From a virus (Duplodnaviria > Heunggongvirae > Uroviricota > Caudoviricetes), in IMG/VR virus record IMGVR_UViG_2675903509_000012: 8,824 nt of DNA, one strand, 5' to 3'. Under the pieces are notes generated by a model. That model saw only the letters and a program-made list of their open reading frames with translations, searched no databases and had not been told where the DNA came from. Made by a program: the position numbers and the translations under genes. Of this stretch, positions 1 through 8,342 are shown one piece after another (within the stretch, counting starts at the first letter, position 1; every line of letters begins with the position of its first letter).

Positions 1-1
1 A

Positions 2-649
2 CGAATATATGTTTTTCTTCTTTGCTGCTCTAGACTTAGATCCTTTAAGTCGATTAAAGGAGCAGCACAACGTTGGGCAAAGAGCTTTGCCAGAGTATGT
101 AAAGTAGCAATGATTTCTCTCTTACCTGCACATGGCACCGTAAGAATTTTTGATGCTAACTCCGATGATAGGCAAAATTATTATGGAACAAATCTTCGGA
201 CAGCTCTACAAACTTTAGGAAAAGATCTTGGAGTTTGTAGTTTAAACACAAGGGAAATAAATAGAGCTCCCACATCTGGTGATGCCGGGTTTGACCTAAT
301 TGCTACAGTGGAATTTCCTGATGGTCAAACTAGCAACTATGGAATTCTTGGTCAATGTGGTGCACAAGAAACAGGGTGGCCAAGCAAAACATTAGAGGCT
401 AACGTGTTAAAACTGACCACCTATTTCCAAATTGCGTTCCAGCATCCATCAACAATGTTCACGCCTGTTTTCTATCGGGAAGCAAATGGCGAATGGGTAA
501 GCACACACGCAACCGCTGGGGTATTATTATTAGATAGGTTGAGAATCATATATCTACTTGATAAGGCAAACCAATGGGAAGCGATAACTACCTCTGATTG
601 GTTTCGCGAATTTGAGGAAGAGCTTTATACATTAAATCCAGAGCCTTAA
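2..649 (+). CDS. 5'-truncated gene of unknown function (start lies left of the window); candidate restriction endonuclease or other effector paired with the adjacent m5C methyltransferase
   Basis: The frame of the listed 110..649 ORF has no stop codon back to position 2, so the listed Met is probably internal. It ends at TAA 647-649, 7 bp from the stop of the convergent methyltransferase. Both genes are visibly more AT-rich than the phage backbone. I recognise no family motif by eye. Confidence 0.6.
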   Translation, partial: RIYVFLLCCSRLRSFKSIKGAAQRWAKSFARVCKVAMISLLPAHGTVRIFDANSDDRQNYYGTNLRTALQTLGKDLGVCSLNTREINRAPTSGDAGFDLIATVEFPDGQTSNYGILGQCGAQETGWPSKTLEANVLKLTTYFQIAFQHPSTMFTPVFYREANGEWVSTHATAGVLLLDRLRIIYLLDKANQWEAITTSDWFREFEEELYTLNPEP

Positions 650-656
650 TAGCTTA

Positions 657-1601
657 TCAATCCCATAATTCTATTGGCAATGCCTTCGTTACAGCTTCAA
701 AAAGCGGCGGAGGCACTGCATTACCAACCACCGTGTATTTCATGCCAAGACTTGCAGCATTTGTTTCTGGAAACACTAGATCCTCAAACCCTTGTAATAG
801 TGCTGCCTCTCGAAAACTGAATCTGCGAGCTCTCCGATCCTCAACAAATCTCCATTCATCAGTTCTTACTTTCTCCATCGGAGGACTGACAGGATGCAAC
901 GGCATATGCCTTGCATTAGCAACTATTGTCTTTGAAATTTGATCCCAATCCTGGCGACGATTGCGAGACATATAATACCAATGGAATCCCATATCATAAA
1001 ATTCACCTTCTGGCCATTCAGGTAAATGCCCTATAGCATCTTTAATAGTAACATAGTTGACGCCAGTTGCTGGCCCATGAGTTGGCTGAGGGAACTCGTA
1101 CTTAACTTTGAAATCATTACGGATTCCTACGATAAATATTCTTTTTCTTTCCTGCGCTACTCCATATTCAGCCGCATTTAAAACTTTTGCGGAAACAGTA
1201 TAACCTGCTTCAGTAAAAACCCTGATCTGGTCAAATAACAAATGCTCAAAATTTTTTCTAACCATACCAGACACGTTTTCTACTATAAAAGCTTTAGGCT
1301 TTATATTGTTTAAAGCTCTAGCAAACTCTAAATAAAGAGTATTAATTTTTCGATCGGCTTTACGCGCACCACCCTGGCTGAATCCCTGACATGGATAACA
1401 ACCTACCAGCAAATCAGATTTAGGAAAAGTAGTTACATCAGCAATATTGCCTAATATGTAATCAGTTTCTGGATGATTGGCAATATAAACATCGCGCGCA
1501 TACGGCAAGATATCGTTGGCCATAAGCACATCAAAGCCGGCTCTCAAAACCCCCGCATCGGAACCACCGCATCCAGAAAAAAGTGAAACTACTGTTGGCA
1601 T
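657..1601 (-). CDS. DNA (cytosine-5)-methyltransferase, small Type II-like m5C MTase
   Basis: 314 aa with the canonical m5C-MTase motifs in order: SLFSGCGG (motif I, AdoMet binding), GCYPCQGFS (motif IV, catalytic Pro-Cys), FIVENVSGM (motif VI, ENV), QERKRIFIVG (motif VIII), FREAALLQGFED (motif IX), TVVGNAVPPPL (motif X). ATG at 1601-1599 is preceded by the SD AGGAGG (complement of 1605-1612). Confidence 0.9.
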   Translation of the reverse strand: MPTVVSLFSGCGGSDAGVLRAGFDVLMANDILPYARDVYIANHPETDYILGNIADVTTFPKSDLLVGCYPCQGFSQGGARKADRKINTLYLEFARALNNIKPKAFIVENVSGMVRKNFEHLLFDQIRVFTEAGYTVSAKVLNAAEYGVAQERKRIFIVGIRNDFKVKYEFPQPTHGPATGVNYVTIKDAIGHLPEWPEGEFYDMGFHWYYMSRNRRQDWDQISKTIVANARHMPLHPVSPPMEKVRTDEWRFVEDRRARRFSFREAALLQGFEDLVFPETNAASLGMKYTVVGNAVPPPLFEAVTKALPIELWD

Positions 1602-1604
1602 TAT

Positions 1605-1640
1605 CCCCTCCTAAAACCGACCGCGTATTATAGCGAAAGC
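1605..1640 (-). promoter_or_regulatory. Candidate RBS and sigma70 -10 element for the methyltransferase
   Basis: On the - strand, a consensus TATAAT (complement of 1627-1632) lies about 20 nt upstream of the SD AGGAGG. No convincing -35 was found, so this is weak. Confidence 0.3.
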
Positions 1641-1802
1641 CTCCGTATATAGAAGCAGGTTTTGAACAAGATTATGTTCTCACTTTTTAACAACTGTGGC
1701 CATAAAAAATTAGCTCAATATGAAAAACAGATTAATTCATTGTTTTTCATAGAAAAATCCCACAAACACTATAACATTCCCACAACACTGCAGTAGTAGT
1801 CA

Positions 1803-4079
1803 TTATTGTTTAACTGAAAAAACCGACCACTCATTAGCGACCGGATACGTGAATTTTTTCCCGTCATAATTTACGGTTGCCCCACGCGCCAGCGCCTCAA
1901 GCTCCCATCGCTGCGGCCTGATACCGTTCTGAGCAAGGTCAACGCGGATACGGGTAATTTGCATTCGTTCCGACCGGGTCAGTCTGGCCGATGGTGCCAT
2001 TTCATGCGGTTTTAACGGGCTTCCGTTTCTTTGCTGGCGATTTGGTGTTCTCAGGCCATGTTTTAATGCACCTCTGAGCGCCCTCACGACCTCCGGGTCA
2101 TTCCATTCGATGACACCGTCATCAACCAGATTAAGCACTGCTGCGGCGTGCTCAGAAGGTGTGGGAGCTGGTAACGAAGTATCACCACCGGTGAGCTTTC
2201 CACAGTTATTGACAGGACTCCGAGGCGCGGCGATGCCGCTTTTTAAAGTCAAAGGCTCAACGACCGGAACTTTCGGCACAATGCGCCAGTCCGTCGTTCT
2301 GGTGATATGAATATGACGCGCGCCGAGATGCGGCGCGTAAATGCCGACCACTCTCTCGACTTCTTCCTCGTACTCGTTAACGTCATCCGACGGGCTACGG
2401 GCGACCCTGACAGTCTGACAATCGCGCGGGACATTTGCCCCGCCCTGCGCGCTGATATACAACGCAAAATCACCACTGTCTGCAGCGGCGCGTGCAGCCT
2501 CGACGCGCTCGTCAAACTCATGAGCAATGCTGACGCCGCGAGGCAATTTGCGTAGTTCACGGTAAGCCCCCATTGTCGGCAGACCAACCGTTTTAAATTG
2601 CGGGATGCGCCACGTTGACGCCCATGCGGTAACAGCCGCGGCAGTGTCTTTCAGCGGTCTGCCGGTATCATTATCGAGCTGACCATCCAGTGCATATCCG
2701 TCGATATTTTTTGAGATGTATTTCGCGATATACCCCGCAGCACCGCCCCGGTTAAGGTGTTTCGCCTGAAAACGGTTTCGCGCGGCTCCTCTTTCGTCGC
2801 CATCCTCTTTGAGCGCATAGCGACGCATGATTTCGATAATCTGGTTACGCTGGCGTGGATTACAAAAAAGCATCATATGCCAGTGCGGCGTTCCGTCGTG
2901 GTGTGGCTCGACGACTCGCAACCCGTAGACCTGTAAATCATTATCCTTGAATGCCGTGCGCATCAGGCTCCAGATACGGCAGAGATAACGCTGCGCATCC
3001 TTTGGATTAAATGCCTCATCGTTCCAGCCGTGATTTAGCTGGACGGTTTTACTTTCGCCTTTTCTGACCTGACGTGTCGGATGATACTTTGACGGCGCGG
3101 TCAGCGTGATAAACATCCCCACATCACCCTCTGCGGCGGCGTAACGCTCAATACCGGCGATGGTGTTCATCAGCTCCATCCGGCGAATTTCAGGATTAGA
3201 AATACTGCCCATCACCTTACTGATAAGGTCGATGCGCTCGCCGGTTTCCCTGTTTTCAAGGTCACACGATTTAAGAAATTCCAGATTTGCCTGGCGGCGT
3301 GCACGTACATCACGAATGGCATGTTTACTGGCATAAGGAGAACGGTCTTTATTCACCTCCCCGACAGCAATCAGTAACGCCTCATGCCAGCGCATACGCT
3401 GGCCTTTAAGCTGATGAGTCCACCACTCATCGTTAAACAGACGGGCAATGGCAGAATATGCCTGCCTCGTGGTTATCTGTCCTTTACGGTATTTTTTCCA
3501 GTAGAGCGGGGAAATATTGAAAGCACGTGCAGCGCCAGCAACATGACCATACAGATGATCCTGCGCCTCATCCGTAAACAGCGATTCTTTTTCGCCATGC
3601 GCATCCACCCAGGCATCGCAGAGTTCCTCATACATCATGAAAAGCTGCGATGAGATACGGGCGGCAAACTTTTTCAGCTCCTTGTCATTCATCCCCGGCA
3701 GACGCGCATAATGGTCACGCTCTGCCAGAAACAGCAACGACGCGTCGGTGTTCATTTCATGGCGCTGATTCACACGCTCAATGCGCGGCCATAAACGACG
3801 CTGAAAAGTGGATGTGAGAAAATAAAACCCGTGCACCGGGCTTTTATTGCGCCGGATGTAGTCATAGCGTGAAGTAAACAGCGAGCGCAAAAAGTAAGGC
3901 AGGCGGTTAATCGTGGATAAAACACCTTGCACCTGACGCATCTCGTCACGTGTAAGGGGTCTTTCGCGCCCGACGGCCTCGCGTGGCGCGTTCCATGCAT
4001 AAGCACCGGTAAACGTCTTACCGGTGCCTGCGGCAAATGCTGACGGAGGGACAAAACGCCCGGAGGCTTTAACGGCCAT
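1803..4079 (-). CDS. A: P2 gene A-like replication initiator (rolling-circle nicking endonuclease)
   Basis: Roughly 760-aa product, near-colinear with the P2 A protein as I recall it (MAVKASGRFVPPSAFAAGTGK... N-terminus). The ORF-track start at 4121 is a TTG; the in-frame ATG at 4079 gives the MAVKASGRF start and overlaps the stop of the upstream small ORF. Confidence 0.92.
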   Translation of the reverse strand: MAVKASGRFVPPSAFAAGTGKTFTGAYAWNAPREAVGRERPLTRDEMRQVQGVLSTINRLPYFLRSLFTSRYDYIRRNKSPVHGFYFLTSTFQRRLWPRIERVNQRHEMNTDASLLFLAERDHYARLPGMNDKELKKFAARISSQLFMMYEELCDAWVDAHGEKESLFTDEAQDHLYGHVAGAARAFNISPLYWKKYRKGQITTRQAYSAIARLFNDEWWTHQLKGQRMRWHEALLIAVGEVNKDRSPYASKHAIRDVRARRQANLEFLKSCDLENRETGERIDLISKVMGSISNPEIRRMELMNTIAGIERYAAAEGDVGMFITLTAPSKYHPTRQVRKGESKTVQLNHGWNDEAFNPKDAQRYLCRIWSLMRTAFKDNDLQVYGLRVVEPHHDGTPHWHMMLFCNPRQRNQIIEIMRRYALKEDGDERGAARNRFQAKHLNRGGAAGYIAKYISKNIDGYALDGQLDNDTGRPLKDTAAAVTAWASTWRIPQFKTVGLPTMGAYRELRKLPRGVSIAHEFDERVEAARAAADSGDFALYISAQGGANVPRDCQTVRVARSPSDDVNEYEEEVERVVGIYAPHLGARHIHITRTTDWRIVPKVPVVEPLTLKSGIAAPRSPVNNCGKLTGGDTSLPAPTPSEHAAAVLNLVDDGVIEWNDPEVVRALRGALKHGLRTPNRQQRNGSPLKPHEMAPSARLTRSERMQITRIRVDLAQNGIRPQRWELEALARGATVNYDGKKFTYPVANEWSVFSVKQ
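2209..2228 (-). other. Candidate origin nick site inside gene A
   Basis: The - strand reads GCGCCTCGGAGTCCTGTCAA, which matches my recollection of the P2 ori sequence nicked by the A protein. It lies in the distal part of A (codons for AAPRSPVN), as in P2. This is recalled, not searched. Confidence 0.45.
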
Positions 4080-4344
4080 ATGAGCCAAAAGCCTCTGAAC
4101 AACGCTTGCTGAGTTGCTCAACCTGCGCGTTTAAATCAGCAAAAGATTTTGCGCTTCCGGTCAGAATATCGTGATGCATCAGGCCGGAAACGAGCTGGCT
4201 TAATTTCGGGTAATAACCAACCACCGACAGCCATTCCTGACCGGCGTTTTTACCGCTTTCCGCTCTCTTTTTCTCGTGGAGAATAAACTGAAAGCTGTCA
4301 CTGGTAACGACATAACGTTCGCCAATTTCAATACGAATACTCAT
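4069..4344 (-). CDS. Hypothetical small protein of the early operon (position of P2 orf83)
   Basis: 91-aa ORF. Its ATG overlaps the stop of the upstream ORF (ATGA) and its stop overlaps the start of A. Order and size fit the P2 orf80-83 block. Confidence 0.7.
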   Translation of the reverse strand: MSIRIEIGERYVVTSDSFQFILHEKKRAESGKNAGQEWLSVVGYYPKLSQLVSGLMHHDILTGSAKSFADLNAQVEQLSKRCSEAFGSYGR

Positions 4345-4565
4345 GCCGTTCTCCGGTAATGTTTGTTTTTTGCTTCAAAGACTGACTGACAGGAAACACA
4401 ACGCGTGGCTGACGGATAAGCCGCACGACGGGCAGCAGGTATTGGCGCGTCACACTCTTCGCAAACCAGCGAAGAAACACCGCAATGTTTTACCCTTGCC
4501 GCGTTAATCTGGCGCTCCAGTAATTCAGCCTGTTGTTCCTGAATAAAATCTACGTTGTCCGGCAT
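4341..4565 (-). CDS. TraR/DksA-family C4 zinc-finger protein (P2 orf82-like)
   Basis: 74 aa with CEECDAPIPAARR...RCVSCQ...KHY, the four-cysteine motif and spacing of F-plasmid TraR and the DksA C-terminus. Start overlaps the upstream stop (TAATG). Confidence 0.85.
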   Translation of the reverse strand: MPDNVDFIQEQQAELLERQINAARVKHCGVSSLVCEECDAPIPAARRAAYPSATRCVSCQSVFEAKNKHYRRTA

Positions 4566-5655: not shown

Positions 5656-5849
5656 TTCCAGACCCTCCGGCTTTTCAGAAAGGTCAGAGCCTTTTTTAAC
5701 GGACTCTGTTTTTTGGTGCGGATAATGATTCCCTTGCGACCCTTCCCGTGGGTGATGGTGAAGTCAATCGCCCTGGGGCTTTCGTTACGCAGTAACTGAG
5801 CAATACAACGCGGCTCATTCATAATCACAACCCCATCCACAAAAGCCAT
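5652..5849 (-). CDS. Hypothetical small protein between cox and B (position of P2 orf78)
   Basis: 65-aa ORF whose stop overlaps the B start (ATGA). An alternative in-frame ATG at 5822 lies 2 nt after the cox stop. Support is positional only. Confidence 0.5.
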   Translation of the reverse strand: MAFVDGVVIMNEPRCIAQLLRNESPRAIDFTITHGKGRKGIIIRTKKQSPLKKALTFLKSRRVWK

Positions 5850-6112
5850 GCATCACGCTGTTCAACCGGTCGGTTATAAAACGCCTCACGTACAGCGCGA
5901 TTAAACTCAGGAATGAAAACCCATTTTTCACCGGCACGAGCCTTCGGTTTGCAAGGATCACGCAATTCAATAATTGGTAATTTATTTGCCTTCACCATTT
6001 CACTGACGGCTGTCTTTGGCTTCCCTAATAAATCAGCAAATTTATCCACATGAACCGCATCAAGCGGATACTGAATCACATAATTTTCAGCGTCCATATA
6101 TGGTACCCTCAT
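5825..6112 (-). CDS. cox: Cox-like excisionase/directionality factor and early-promoter regulator
   Basis: About 90 aa, first gene of the early operon and divergent from the C repressor. The C-terminal pattern KLPIIE...AGEKWVFIPEFN...RDAWLLWMGL resembles P2 Cox as I recall it. The internal ATG at 6097 has a better SD (GAGGG) than 6112 and gives a 90-aa product. Confidence 0.8.
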   Translation of the reverse strand: MRVPYMDAENYVIQYPLDAVHVDKFADLLGKPKTAVSEMVKANKLPIIELRDPCKPKARAGEKWVFIPEFNRAVREAFYNRPVEQRDAWLLWMGL

Positions 6113-6233: not shown

Positions 6234-6527
6234 ATGAAATTAAGCGAAAAGATTAAGGCCTTGCGTGAGGCTGAAGGGCTAAGCCAATCAAAATTCTGTG
6301 AAATCATAGAGTTACCGCTAAGCACACTTAAAAAATATGAAGGAGGAAACTTTGAACCCGGTGGCACAGCTTTGCTAAAAATCACTATGCATCCCACATT
6401 CCAAAAATATGCTCTATGGCTTATGACAGATAAAACCGCGCCGGACGCAGGACAAATCGCACCGGCTCTCGCGCACATTGGGCCAGAGTCAACAGAGTCC
6501 AACCACTCCGCGAAAAGGATTGGCTAA
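6234..6527 (+). CDS. C: P2 C-type immunity repressor
   Basis: 97 aa (P2 C is 99) with an N-terminal helix-turn-helix-like region. The C-terminal half (HPTFQKYALWLMTDKTAPDAGQIAPALAHIG) closely resembles P2 C as I recall it. Divergent from cox and upstream of int, as in P2. Confidence 0.85.
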   Translation: MKLSEKIKALREAEGLSQSKFCEIIELPLSTLKKYEGGNFEPGGTALLKITMHPTFQKYALWLMTDKTAPDAGQIAPALAHIGPESTESNHSAKRIG

Positions 6528-6596
6528 CTCTATATAAAGATTACATTTTCACCATTTGCTACCAAGATGGTGAATACAGCGCCGGAGGGCTTTCTT

Positions 6597-7577
6597 ATGG
6601 CAATTAAGAAGCTCGATGACGGTCGCTATGAAGTGGACATTAGACCTCGCGGTCGCGACGGAAAACGCATCCGCAGGAAATTCGAAAGAAAAGCTGAAGC
6701 ACTAGCATTTGAGCGATACACAATCGCCAATGCCAGTCAGAAAGAATGGGGAGGCCAGCGAGCAGACCGCCGAACTTTGAGTGAGTTGCTGGACATCTGG
6801 TGGAAATATCACGGGCAAAACCACGAGCATGGAACAAAAGAGTTTAATCATCTACTCAAAACCATCAGCGGCATAGGTGATATACCAGTGAGCCGGATGA
6901 GCAAAAGGGCTTTGATGGATTATCGTTCCATGCGACTACGTGATGGTATCAGTGCCGCAACGATAAACCGTGACATGTACCGATTATCCGGCATGTTCAC
7001 AAAATTAATTCAATTGGATGAATTTTCCGGGCAACACCCAATTCACGGACTGCCGCCACTGGCGGAGGCCAACCCTGAAATGACGTTCCTGGAAAAAGCA
7101 GAAATCGAAAAACTGTTAAATGTTTTGGCTGGTGATGACTTACTTGTCGCGCTTTTATGTCTGAGCACTGGAGGAAGATGGACGGAAGTTGCCACGCTAA
7201 AACCAGCACAGATTACAAATTGCAGGGTTACCTTCCTGAAAACCAAAAACGGTAAAAAGCGAACCGTGCCGATTTCTGAGGAACTGGAGAAAAAAGTTAA
7301 AGAGGAGGCCAGCGCCAAATTATTCAAAGTTGATTATGAGAAATTTTGCGGGATTTTACGCAGAGTGAAACCTGATATACCACCCAATCAGGCAACCCAC
7401 ATCCTGCGGCATACATTCGCAAGCCATTTCATGATGAATGGGGGCAATATAATCGCACTGCAACAGATTCTGGGACATGCGAGCATTCAGCAGACGATGG
7501 CCTATGCGCACCTTGCGCCTGACTACCTGCAAAATGCCGTCGCTCTGAATCCACTAAAAGGCGGAGTGACGTTATAA
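6597..7577 (+). CDS. int: Tyrosine integrase, P2 Int family
   Basis: N-terminus MAIKKLDDGRYEVDIRPRG matches the P2 Int start as I recall it. C-terminal catalytic signature of tyrosine recombinases: R (TGGRWTE), HxxRH (HILRHTFASH), LGH and the tyrosine in MAYAHL. ATG 6597 has the SD GGAGGG 7 nt upstream; the ORF-track start at 6567 lacks one. Confidence 0.9.
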   Translation: MAIKKLDDGRYEVDIRPRGRDGKRIRRKFERKAEALAFERYTIANASQKEWGGQRADRRTLSELLDIWWKYHGQNHEHGTKEFNHLLKTISGIGDIPVSRMSKRALMDYRSMRLRDGISAATINRDMYRLSGMFTKLIQLDEFSGQHPIHGLPPLAEANPEMTFLEKAEIEKLLNVLAGDDLLVALLCLSTGGRWTEVATLKPAQITNCRVTFLKTKNGKKRTVPISEELEKKVKEEASAKLFKVDYEKFCGILRRVKPDIPPNQATHILRHTFASHFMMNGGNIIALQQILGHASIQQTMAYAHLAPDYLQNAVALNPLKGGVTL

Positions 7578-7763: not shown

Positions 7764-8264
7764 CTACTGGGAACGTGAGTTGCTACTACTCAATAGCTTC
7801 AACGATGAACTTTTTTGCCATTGCGTCACGTCACGCAACTGCTCCATTCGTTGTTGATGTTTCTCGTTTAAAACCGCTTGCTGCTCCGGCGTTAACAGGC
7901 GATACATTTGGTTGCGGACTTTTGCCATCTCAACCTGACGAGCAATTTGCTCATTCGCCATTTTTTCTGCCTGTGCGCGCACAGCGTTTTCATCAAAATT
8001 TTCTGCGGTGACAAGGCGATGCATTGTCTCCAGTTCGCTAACATTAACAGGAGGCTGTTCGTGCCGGGCCTGTTGCATAAGATCTCGCATCTGCTGACGC
8101 TGATGTTCGGTTAAACTTATGCCGTCGAACATATGGCTCTGCGTACTGCGCTGCGTAAGTTCTTCACCCGGATGCCAGTTATCGCCTGAACCGACTTCAG
8201 CAGCGTGGCTTAATGAACTGACTGCCAGCGTTGAGGCCATGACGGCAGCGGTAACTATGCGCAT
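7764..8264 (-). CDS. cpxP: Periplasmic Cpx-pathway adaptor/inhibitor CpxP
   Basis: Translation matches E. coli CpxP as I recall it ([21 protein letters not shown] signal peptide, [15 protein letters not shown]). The ATG at 8264 has better SD spacing (GGGAG) than the listed 8267. Confidence 0.93.
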
Positions 8265-8342
8265 CATTTGCTCCCAAAATCTTTCTGTCGCGATTCAACG
8301 ATAGAGAGTTTACGATTCAGGCTGCAAACATGCGTCAGGGGG

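Follow-up and report, generated by a model that had tools for sequence, protein, structure and literature searches.

What is encoded by the gene that runs off the left edge of an 8,824-nucleotide (nt) stretch of viral DNA (Caudoviricetes; IMG/VR record IMGVR_UViG_2675903509_000012; the whole stretch is referred to here as the window)? In this work we bring together sequence, structure-model and gene-neighbourhood evidence that it probably encodes the nuclease effector of a three-gene, prophage-borne defence cassette resembling a restriction-modification (R-M) system. The other two members of the cassette are a ParB-like cytidine triphosphatase (CTPase) with a helix-turn-helix (HTH) domain and a C5-cytosine DNA methyltransferase (C5-MTase).

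The frame runs on the + strand from window position 2 without a stop until the TAA at 647-649, directly followed by a second stop, TAG (translation of window 2-652). Of 5,426 complete E. coli chromosomes, 48 match window positions 1-1800 at 99.8-99.9% identity. The full gene is found in NZ_CP077477.1 (locus L001; window position equals L001 position minus 6000) at L001 5660-6649, encoding a 329-residue protein (WP_000142509.1, annotated as a hypothetical protein) to which the 215 window-visible residues are identical. Because the gene is annotated at these positions, window nt 2 is the first base of codon R115, and 114 codons (342 nt; L001 6001 back to 5660) lie upstream of the window. An earlier reading made from the sequence alone (the sequence-only reading) had placed the true start outside the window, with part of the N-terminus missing and the listed Met at position 110 probably internal, and had proposed retrieval of the full-length open reading frame (ORF) and structure prediction. 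The complete genomes bear out the first three points: the Met is M151, and the ORF list starts at ATG 110 because the frame runs off the left window edge. The retrieval yielded the 329-residue protein (the candidate), and the structure prediction gave a confident model resembling restriction endonucleases (REases), described below.

The candidate is the product of a real, strongly conserved gene. Neither the full-length nor the truncated form has a meaningful Pfam, NCBIfam or PADLOC match at E≤1, so the statement that it has no recognisable family holds for curated libraries; it matches only function-unknown PHROGs (phrog_3984, 2.6e-173, and phrog_14650), and public names in four clusters of the family are all 'hypothetical protein'. 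A word-indexed search gave 252 homologues, and an exhaustive hidden Markov model (HMM) search gave 1,260 clusters at 50% identity, almost all of 310-350 residues and matched end to end. At least 1,000 contigs hold the identical E. coli sequence, and the carriers of the family are P2-like prophages, found in E. coli, Salmonella, Yersinia, Citrobacter and many environmental Proteobacteria. In 257 full-length members, D212, Q232, W240, R293, R295 and R87 are invariant, and D18, E21, D208 and D292 differ in only one or two (D292 is kept in 256). A naturally inactivated copy is also present at L076 3962-5525, where a homologue is shortened to 247 residues by insertion of an rve-family insertion sequence (IS).

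The structure of the candidate was modelled with AlphaFold2 (AF2) from a 59-sequence alignment (mean predicted local distance difference test score, pLDDT, 87.4; predicted template modelling score, pTM, 0.89). The model has a central mixed β-sheet with flanking helices, as in the PD-(D/E)xK fold, and is superposable on known REases; its Foldseek top match is MspJI (E 7.5e-3, probability 0.97), and MspJI and AspBHI are among the closest structural relatives. Independently, a sequence profile of 58 diverse family members (A2), compared with all PDB sequences, has MspJI as its best match (E 0.004). A profile of close homologues (A1) gave coiled-coil noise only, so that MspJI came up only with the broader A2. 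In that alignment, family positions 179-236 correspond to MspJI 297-360 (sssGDgglDlV...vlGQCaa versus SSGDGGVDFIG...VLGQAKC), which places D212 opposite MspJI D334 and Q232 opposite MspJI Q355. Single distant members give sub-threshold matches in the same segment to Pfam Mrr_cat (0.005), LmuA (0.018) and PADLOC methyl-directed type II REase models (1.3e-4 to 8e-3); the Mrr_cat gathering threshold (21 bits) is unreached, with no match for the window protein and 17.4 bits (E 0.005) for the best family member.

In the MspJI family motif D...(Q/E)xK, the Asp starts strand 2 and (Q/E)xK ends strand 3, and the D334A and Q355A mutations of MspJI abolish cleavage (PMC2938202). In the AF2 model of the candidate, D212 (257 of 257 members) stands directly before strand 213-217, and Q232 ends strand 227-233, matching the description of MspJI. 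The segment SGDAGFDLIA is strand 2 of the core and ILGQCGAQE is strand 3. The sequence-only reading had pointed to SGDAGFDLIATVEF (residues 206-219) and ILGQCGAQE (229-237) as possible parts of a degenerate PD-(D/E)xK core, offered as speculation; the two stretches are the two central core strands, aligned with GDGGvD334...GQ355aK357 of MspJI. What needs amending is the type: instead of a simply degenerate PD-(D/E)xK core, the candidate has a D...QxK (Mrr/MspJI) core in which the Lys appears to have moved. Residues ∼130-329, all within the window, thus probably form a nuclease domain of this type, as judged from the profiles and the model. The N-terminal domain (residues 1-∼130, mostly outside the window) is helical in the model, carries its own invariant D18, E21, R87 and Y95, and probably docks onto the ParB-like partner. 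The motif D292-R293-x-R295, at the start of the helix after the last core strand of the model, may serve in DNA binding or be part of the active site.

The canonical lysine is missing from this core. MspJI K357 aligns with Gly234, and strand 3 of the candidate ends in Q-C-G instead of (Q/E)-x-K. Among the 257 members, 252 have Ala, Gly, Thr or Ser at position 234, and 251 combine a non-Lys residue there with a Lys nine residues downstream of that position, in the context of the invariant W240 (W-x-x-K243). Canonical Q-x-K is found in five members (P0230, P0233, P0238, P0240 and P0241), all without Lys at W+3. One member has neither lysine, and the sole apparent exception to the exclusivity of the two is an alignment shift. 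The alignment suggests that the catalytic Lys has been relocated from the Q-x-K position to K243 in the following W-x-x-K loop; mutual exclusivity is the pattern expected of a relocated catalytic residue, and argues for an active rather than a decayed nuclease. Caveats are that the five Q-x-K sequences are probably one clade and possibly reflect a single evolutionary event, and that within the domain the model has its lowest confidence in the loop 231-250 (pLDDT 70-77). The replacement of the canonical Lys, by Gly or Ala in 251 of 257 members, would fit a catalytically dead REase fold serving as a DNA-binding or adaptor subunit, with the ParB-like protein or a host factor as the effector. Inactive REase domains act as DNA sensors in ParB-containing defence, as in Menshen NsnA (PMC12065111), which gives this explanation a precedent; the invariance of D212 and Q232 and the exclusivity of the two lysines speak against it, and we regard it as very improbable.

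The gene directly upstream (L001 4549-5670, outside the window) overlaps the start of the candidate gene by 11 nt in ...GGTGATGATGACTTTTGA and encodes a 373-residue protein with a ParB_N match and an HTH domain. Its CTP-binding motifs are intact, with invariant Box I (ENPR) and Box II (E79-G-N-R-R83), and the protein matches more than 25 PADLOC PD-Lambda-5_A models (best 6e-29 over residues 9-282). PD-lambda-5 is an experimentally validated two-gene defence system of a P2-like prophage (Vassallo et al. 2022, PMC9519451). The third gene is convergent with the candidate gene, with stops 7 nt apart, and encodes a C5-MTase matching Pfam DNA_methylase (PF00145, 2.4e-64) and the dcm family TIGR00675. 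It is a full-length homologue of M.HaeIII, its best solved homologue (3e-48 over residues 4-308); M.HaeIII methylates GGCC. In PADLOC, the C5-MTase scores best with the DruM models of Druantia type II (1e-113), and the generic models for type II MTases rank lower.

The cassette was examined in 19 genomic loci (Gamma- and Betaproteobacteria) and in 62 viral contigs found by a scan with profile A1. The ParB-like gene is directly upstream in all loci with upstream sequence (17/17 genomic and 61/61 viral; 78/78 in total), usually overlapping the candidate gene. The stop-start overlap, at such tight linkage, implies co-translation and probably a complex. A C5-MTase is adjacent in 10 of the 16 genomic loci with downstream sequence and in 62/62 viral contigs, giving 72 of 78 loci with enough flanking sequence, a linked methylase as in type II systems. 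It stands in three arrangements (convergent, co-directional downstream, and upstream, the last in the viral contig L071), and this linkage across deep divergence argues for functional coupling. For example, locus L023 encodes a 26%-identity homologue from the canonical Q-x-K clade in a co-directional ParB_N, candidate, C5-MTase operon, and phage Wphi carries a deeply diverged cassette (gp98/gp96/mth) in which the MTase is 77%, the ParB-like protein 34% and the candidate 26% identical to the E. coli proteins. In viral contigs L038 and L054-L087, the MTase is 64-100% identical, with ParB and candidate identities down to 25-40%. By sequence, a conserved MTase beside a fast-evolving nuclease is the usual R-M pattern. 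At locus L038, a 98% Wphi-type MTase stands beside a candidate of the E. coli type (58%); on these identities, the exchange of MTase types between cassette subtypes is modular recombination within the hotspot described below.

The C5-MTase is absent in six genomic loci (L003, L006, L008 and L013-L015), all from Methylococcales methanotrophs and all keeping every invariant residue of the candidate. In three of the MTase-less loci the pair stands among housekeeping genes, and in L008 it is followed by IS607-like genes. Elsewhere the flanks are prophage or mobile genetic element genes (tail genes, S24 repressor, Rep_trans, IS elements). Two loci contain an additional nuclease gene, namely an HNH_2 gene (7e-11) between candidate and MTase at L004 6997-7926 (Methylophilaceae) and an HNH gene (4e-7) just beyond the MTase at L012 8118-8840 (Halomonas); the cassette methylase may serve more than one nuclease.

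The sequence-only reading had treated the candidate as the partner of the MTase. This is correct insofar as the MTase adjoins it in most loci; what was missed is the main and tightest partner, the ParB-like gene, which lies wholly outside the window. In a classical two-gene type II R-M system, the candidate would be a sequence-specific REase matched to the MTase, and the ParB-like protein would be no more than a KorB-like transcriptional controller, the counterpart of a C-protein. Both the layout of the genes and the similarity to KorB fit this arrangement. Against it, the ParB-like gene is linked more tightly than the MTase (78/78, with overlapping stop and start) and persists with the candidate where the MTase is missing, PD-lambda-5 A has homologous ParB modules joined to effector domains, and a 373-residue CTPase would be an unusual controller, so that we consider the two-gene arrangement decidedly unlikely.

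A different assignment of roles is suggested by the closest relatives of the candidate. MspJI and AspBHI are modification-dependent, the PADLOC matches of distant members are methyl-directed REase models, and MspJI itself adjoins a C5-MTase (PMC2938202). By analogy with GmrS/GmrD, the candidate could be a type IV, MspJI-like nuclease that attacks modified DNA together with the ParB-like protein; the methylase would then not be a protector and could be a phage anti-restriction methylase or act in another sequence context. The six loci with only the ParB-candidate pair are consistent with this, as is the combination of a ParB-like NTPase with a nuclease, which is the architecture of GmrSD, SspE and PD-T4-2 (PMC12065111), and PD-lambda-5 protects best against T-even phages (PMC9519451). 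No SRA-like or other known modified-base reader was detected in the candidate, whose helical N-terminal domain gave no such matches, and a 5-methylcytosine (5mC)-dependent nuclease beside a 5mC methylase, as linked in 72 of 78 loci, would be self-destructive. This modification-dependent activity is in our view unlikely.

The genomic setting of the cassette bears on whether its role is defence at all. The window covers the early genes of a P2-like prophage whose integration site adjoins the host gene cpxP (Table 1), and in the complete genome the cassette lies between the portal gene Q and gene A. This variable locus, which holds old and tin in P2, is a recognised anti-phage hotspot (Vassallo et al. 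2022, PMC9519451). The GC content of the three cassette genes is ∼38-41%, compared with ∼53% in flanking phage genes, with a sharp change between window 1-1750 and 1800-4100; because of this low GC, the cassette looks like a horizontally acquired moron. Just upstream of the ParB-like gene (L001 4303-4357 region) is a palindrome, ATGCAGTTGCAT, conserved in five diverged cassettes and followed in some loci by more ATGCA/TGCAT repeats. The same region contains GTGCTTTCCCCGCCTCGCC, which we take to match the P2 cohesive end. The palindrome was considered as an operator or loading site and set aside: since it abuts the P2 cos sequence, it was attributed to packaging. The L001 4303-4357 sequences are thus probably packaging signals, the alternative being a ParB/KorB-type operator.

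The position next to cos also invites a non-defence explanation, in which the ParB-like protein and the candidate would serve phage DNA transactions such as packaging, partition or replication, with the methylase as protector of the phage DNA. Prophages are enriched in combinations of a ParB fold and a methylase whose roles are unclear (PMC12704722). However, just 48 of the 5,426 complete E. coli genomes have the cassette, which occupies the exchangeable old/tin hotspot with foreign GC, and occurs outside P2-like phages too, on other elements and in the chromosome, as an accessory set and not a core phage function. The chance that it serves such transactions is slight.

Table 1. Coordinates of the candidate gene, its predicted functional residues and neighbouring features (window positions).
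Feature	Position	Strand	Basis or remark
3' two-thirds of the candidate gene (codons R115-P329 + TAA)	2..649	+	Open frame; full gene in complete genomes; homologues; AF2 model
Predicted nuclease active-site segment S206-K243	275..388	+	Profile alignment to MspJI; residue conservation; model strands
D208 codon	281-283	+	Within active-site segment
D212 codon	293-295	+	Within active-site segment
Q232-C233-G234 codons	353-361	+	End of model strand 227-233
W240 codon	377-379	+	
K243 codon	386-388	+	Proposed relocated catalytic Lys
D292-R293-x-R295 motif	533..544	+	Family conservation; model secondary structure
Spacer (7 nt) between convergent stop codons of candidate and MTase genes	650..656		Sequence; ORF coordinates
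C5-cytosine DNA methyltransferase (314 residues), usual third cassette gene	657..1601	-	Pfam; TIGR00675; M.HaeIII homology
Gene A, replication endonuclease	1803-4121	-	RefSeq start 4079
TraR/DksA zinc-finger gene	4341-4565	-	
DUF5405 genes and DUF2732			Among small early genes
Cox	5825-6112	-	
C repressor	6234-6527	+	
Integrase	6567-7577	+	RefSeq start 6597
cpxP (host gene)	7764-8267	-	

Scans for promoters and terminators near the two convergent genes gave nothing informative, and the 7-nt spacer has no terminator. A terminator-like hairpin with a T-run is present at 1823-1844 (- strand); it overlaps the final codons of gene A and lies a short way upstream of the MTase gene, and no consensus promoter was found between this hairpin and the MTase start.

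Taken together, the nuclease effector of an R-M-like cassette is the reading that we favour. We infer an active nuclease held in a complex with the ParB-like protein, with a role in defence and a preference for unmethylated DNA. The translationally coupled ParB-like protein would bind DNA and recruit or license the nuclease, the M.HaeIII-like methylase would mark host and prophage DNA as self, and incoming unmethylated phage DNA would be cut.

A bolder version, rather unlikely in our estimate, builds restriction on the ParB CTP switch. Partition ParB and KorB form CTP-gated sliding clamps. The cassette ParB could likewise load at unmethylated sites on incoming DNA and close into such a clamp, which would carry or activate the Mrr-like nuclease; the active site would become complete, through the relocated loop lysine K243, only once the nuclease is licensed, and the C5-methylase would prevent loading on self DNA. 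Site recognition is coupled to cleavage by ATP-driven translocation in type I systems, by ATP-triggered sliding in type III systems and by direct cutting in type II systems. If such a CTP switch operates here, it would be a fourth coupling, and PD-lambda-5 would be a sibling with an abortive infection (Abi) effector.

The cassette is uncharacterised and absent from current defence catalogues, and its theme of ParB-linked, methylase-associated defence in prophage hotspots is known. Literature searches (PD-lambda-5, PDC-M38, and ParB with methylase and P2 hotspot) found no named system with this architecture, and Rousset et al. 2022 make no mention of ParB or methylases. With the present assignment, a nameless hotspot gene that Pfam, NCBIfam and PADLOC v2 do not detect becomes a concrete defence candidate. 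The assignment also gives a mechanistic way into PD-lambda-5, a system that is validated but still unexplained. It would add to the roles of the ParB-CTPase fold, and what this fold does beyond chromosome segregation is a live question (PMC12704722). In lysogens with the cassette, 5mC methylation of their own DNA is to be expected, which touches on McrBC/Mrr host compatibility, cloning and phage-therapy host range.

Among known enzymes, MspJI and Mrr_cat (PF04471) have the same core fold, in which the second Asp of GDgGxD starts a strand and GQ ends the next, and the two aligned essential residues of MspJI are kept in the candidate. The Q-x-K Lys of MspJI is canonical, whereas the candidate family mostly has Ala, Gly, Thr or Ser there and a Lys nine residues downstream. 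MspJI has an N-terminal SRA-like 5mC reader where the candidate is helical, and, unlike MspJI, the candidate always has a ParB-like neighbour gene.

Type II and type III R-M systems are similar to the cassette in the adjacency of methylase and nuclease, the convergent and compact layout, the conserved M with fast-evolving R, and mobile carriage. They differ in that a ParB-CTPase is obligatory here (by linkage), the methylase is dispensable in some loci, and there is no ATPase or helicase motor, so that any long-range communication would be by CTP-gated rather than ATP-driven sliding. GmrSD, SspE, PD-T4-2 and Menshen combine a ParB-superfamily NTP-binding DNA sensor with a nuclease effector (PMC12065111), and this sensor-plus-nuclease logic is common to the cassette. 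These systems belong to the DUF262 branch (DGxQR), use HNH, HEPN or other effectors and have no methylase, whereas the cassette has canonical ParB Box I/II (ENPR, GNRR) with an HTH, a PD-(D/E)xK effector and a linked C5-MTase. The ParB-like partner matches ParB_N and not DUF262, which with the PD-(D/E)xK domain sets it apart from GmrSD (DUF262 with DGxQR plus DUF1524 HNH).

The nearest known system is found in the same kind of prophage. PD-lambda-5 was interpreted by its discoverers as a compact 'RM+Abi' system and needed an mrr-region-deleted host (PMC9519451). It has a homologous ParB-N/middle module (∼270 residues) and a paired DNA methylase. PD-lambda-5 A is a protein of ∼500 residues with a weak HEPN-like C-terminus, compared with the 373-residue ParB-like protein here, which apparently lacks a HEPN part. 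PD-lambda-5 B is a Dam-type N6-adenine methylase (MethyltransfD12, PF02086), compared with the C5-methylase of the cassette. We rejected the idea of the candidate as the missing HEPN half of a PD-lambda-5 A protein, as it matches no PD-lambda-5 model in PADLOC and has a different fold. PD-lambda-5 thus consists of two genes without a counterpart of the candidate, and the cassette of three with a separate REase-fold effector; because effector and methylase are both swapped, the cassette is a sibling of PD-lambda-5 and not a member of it.
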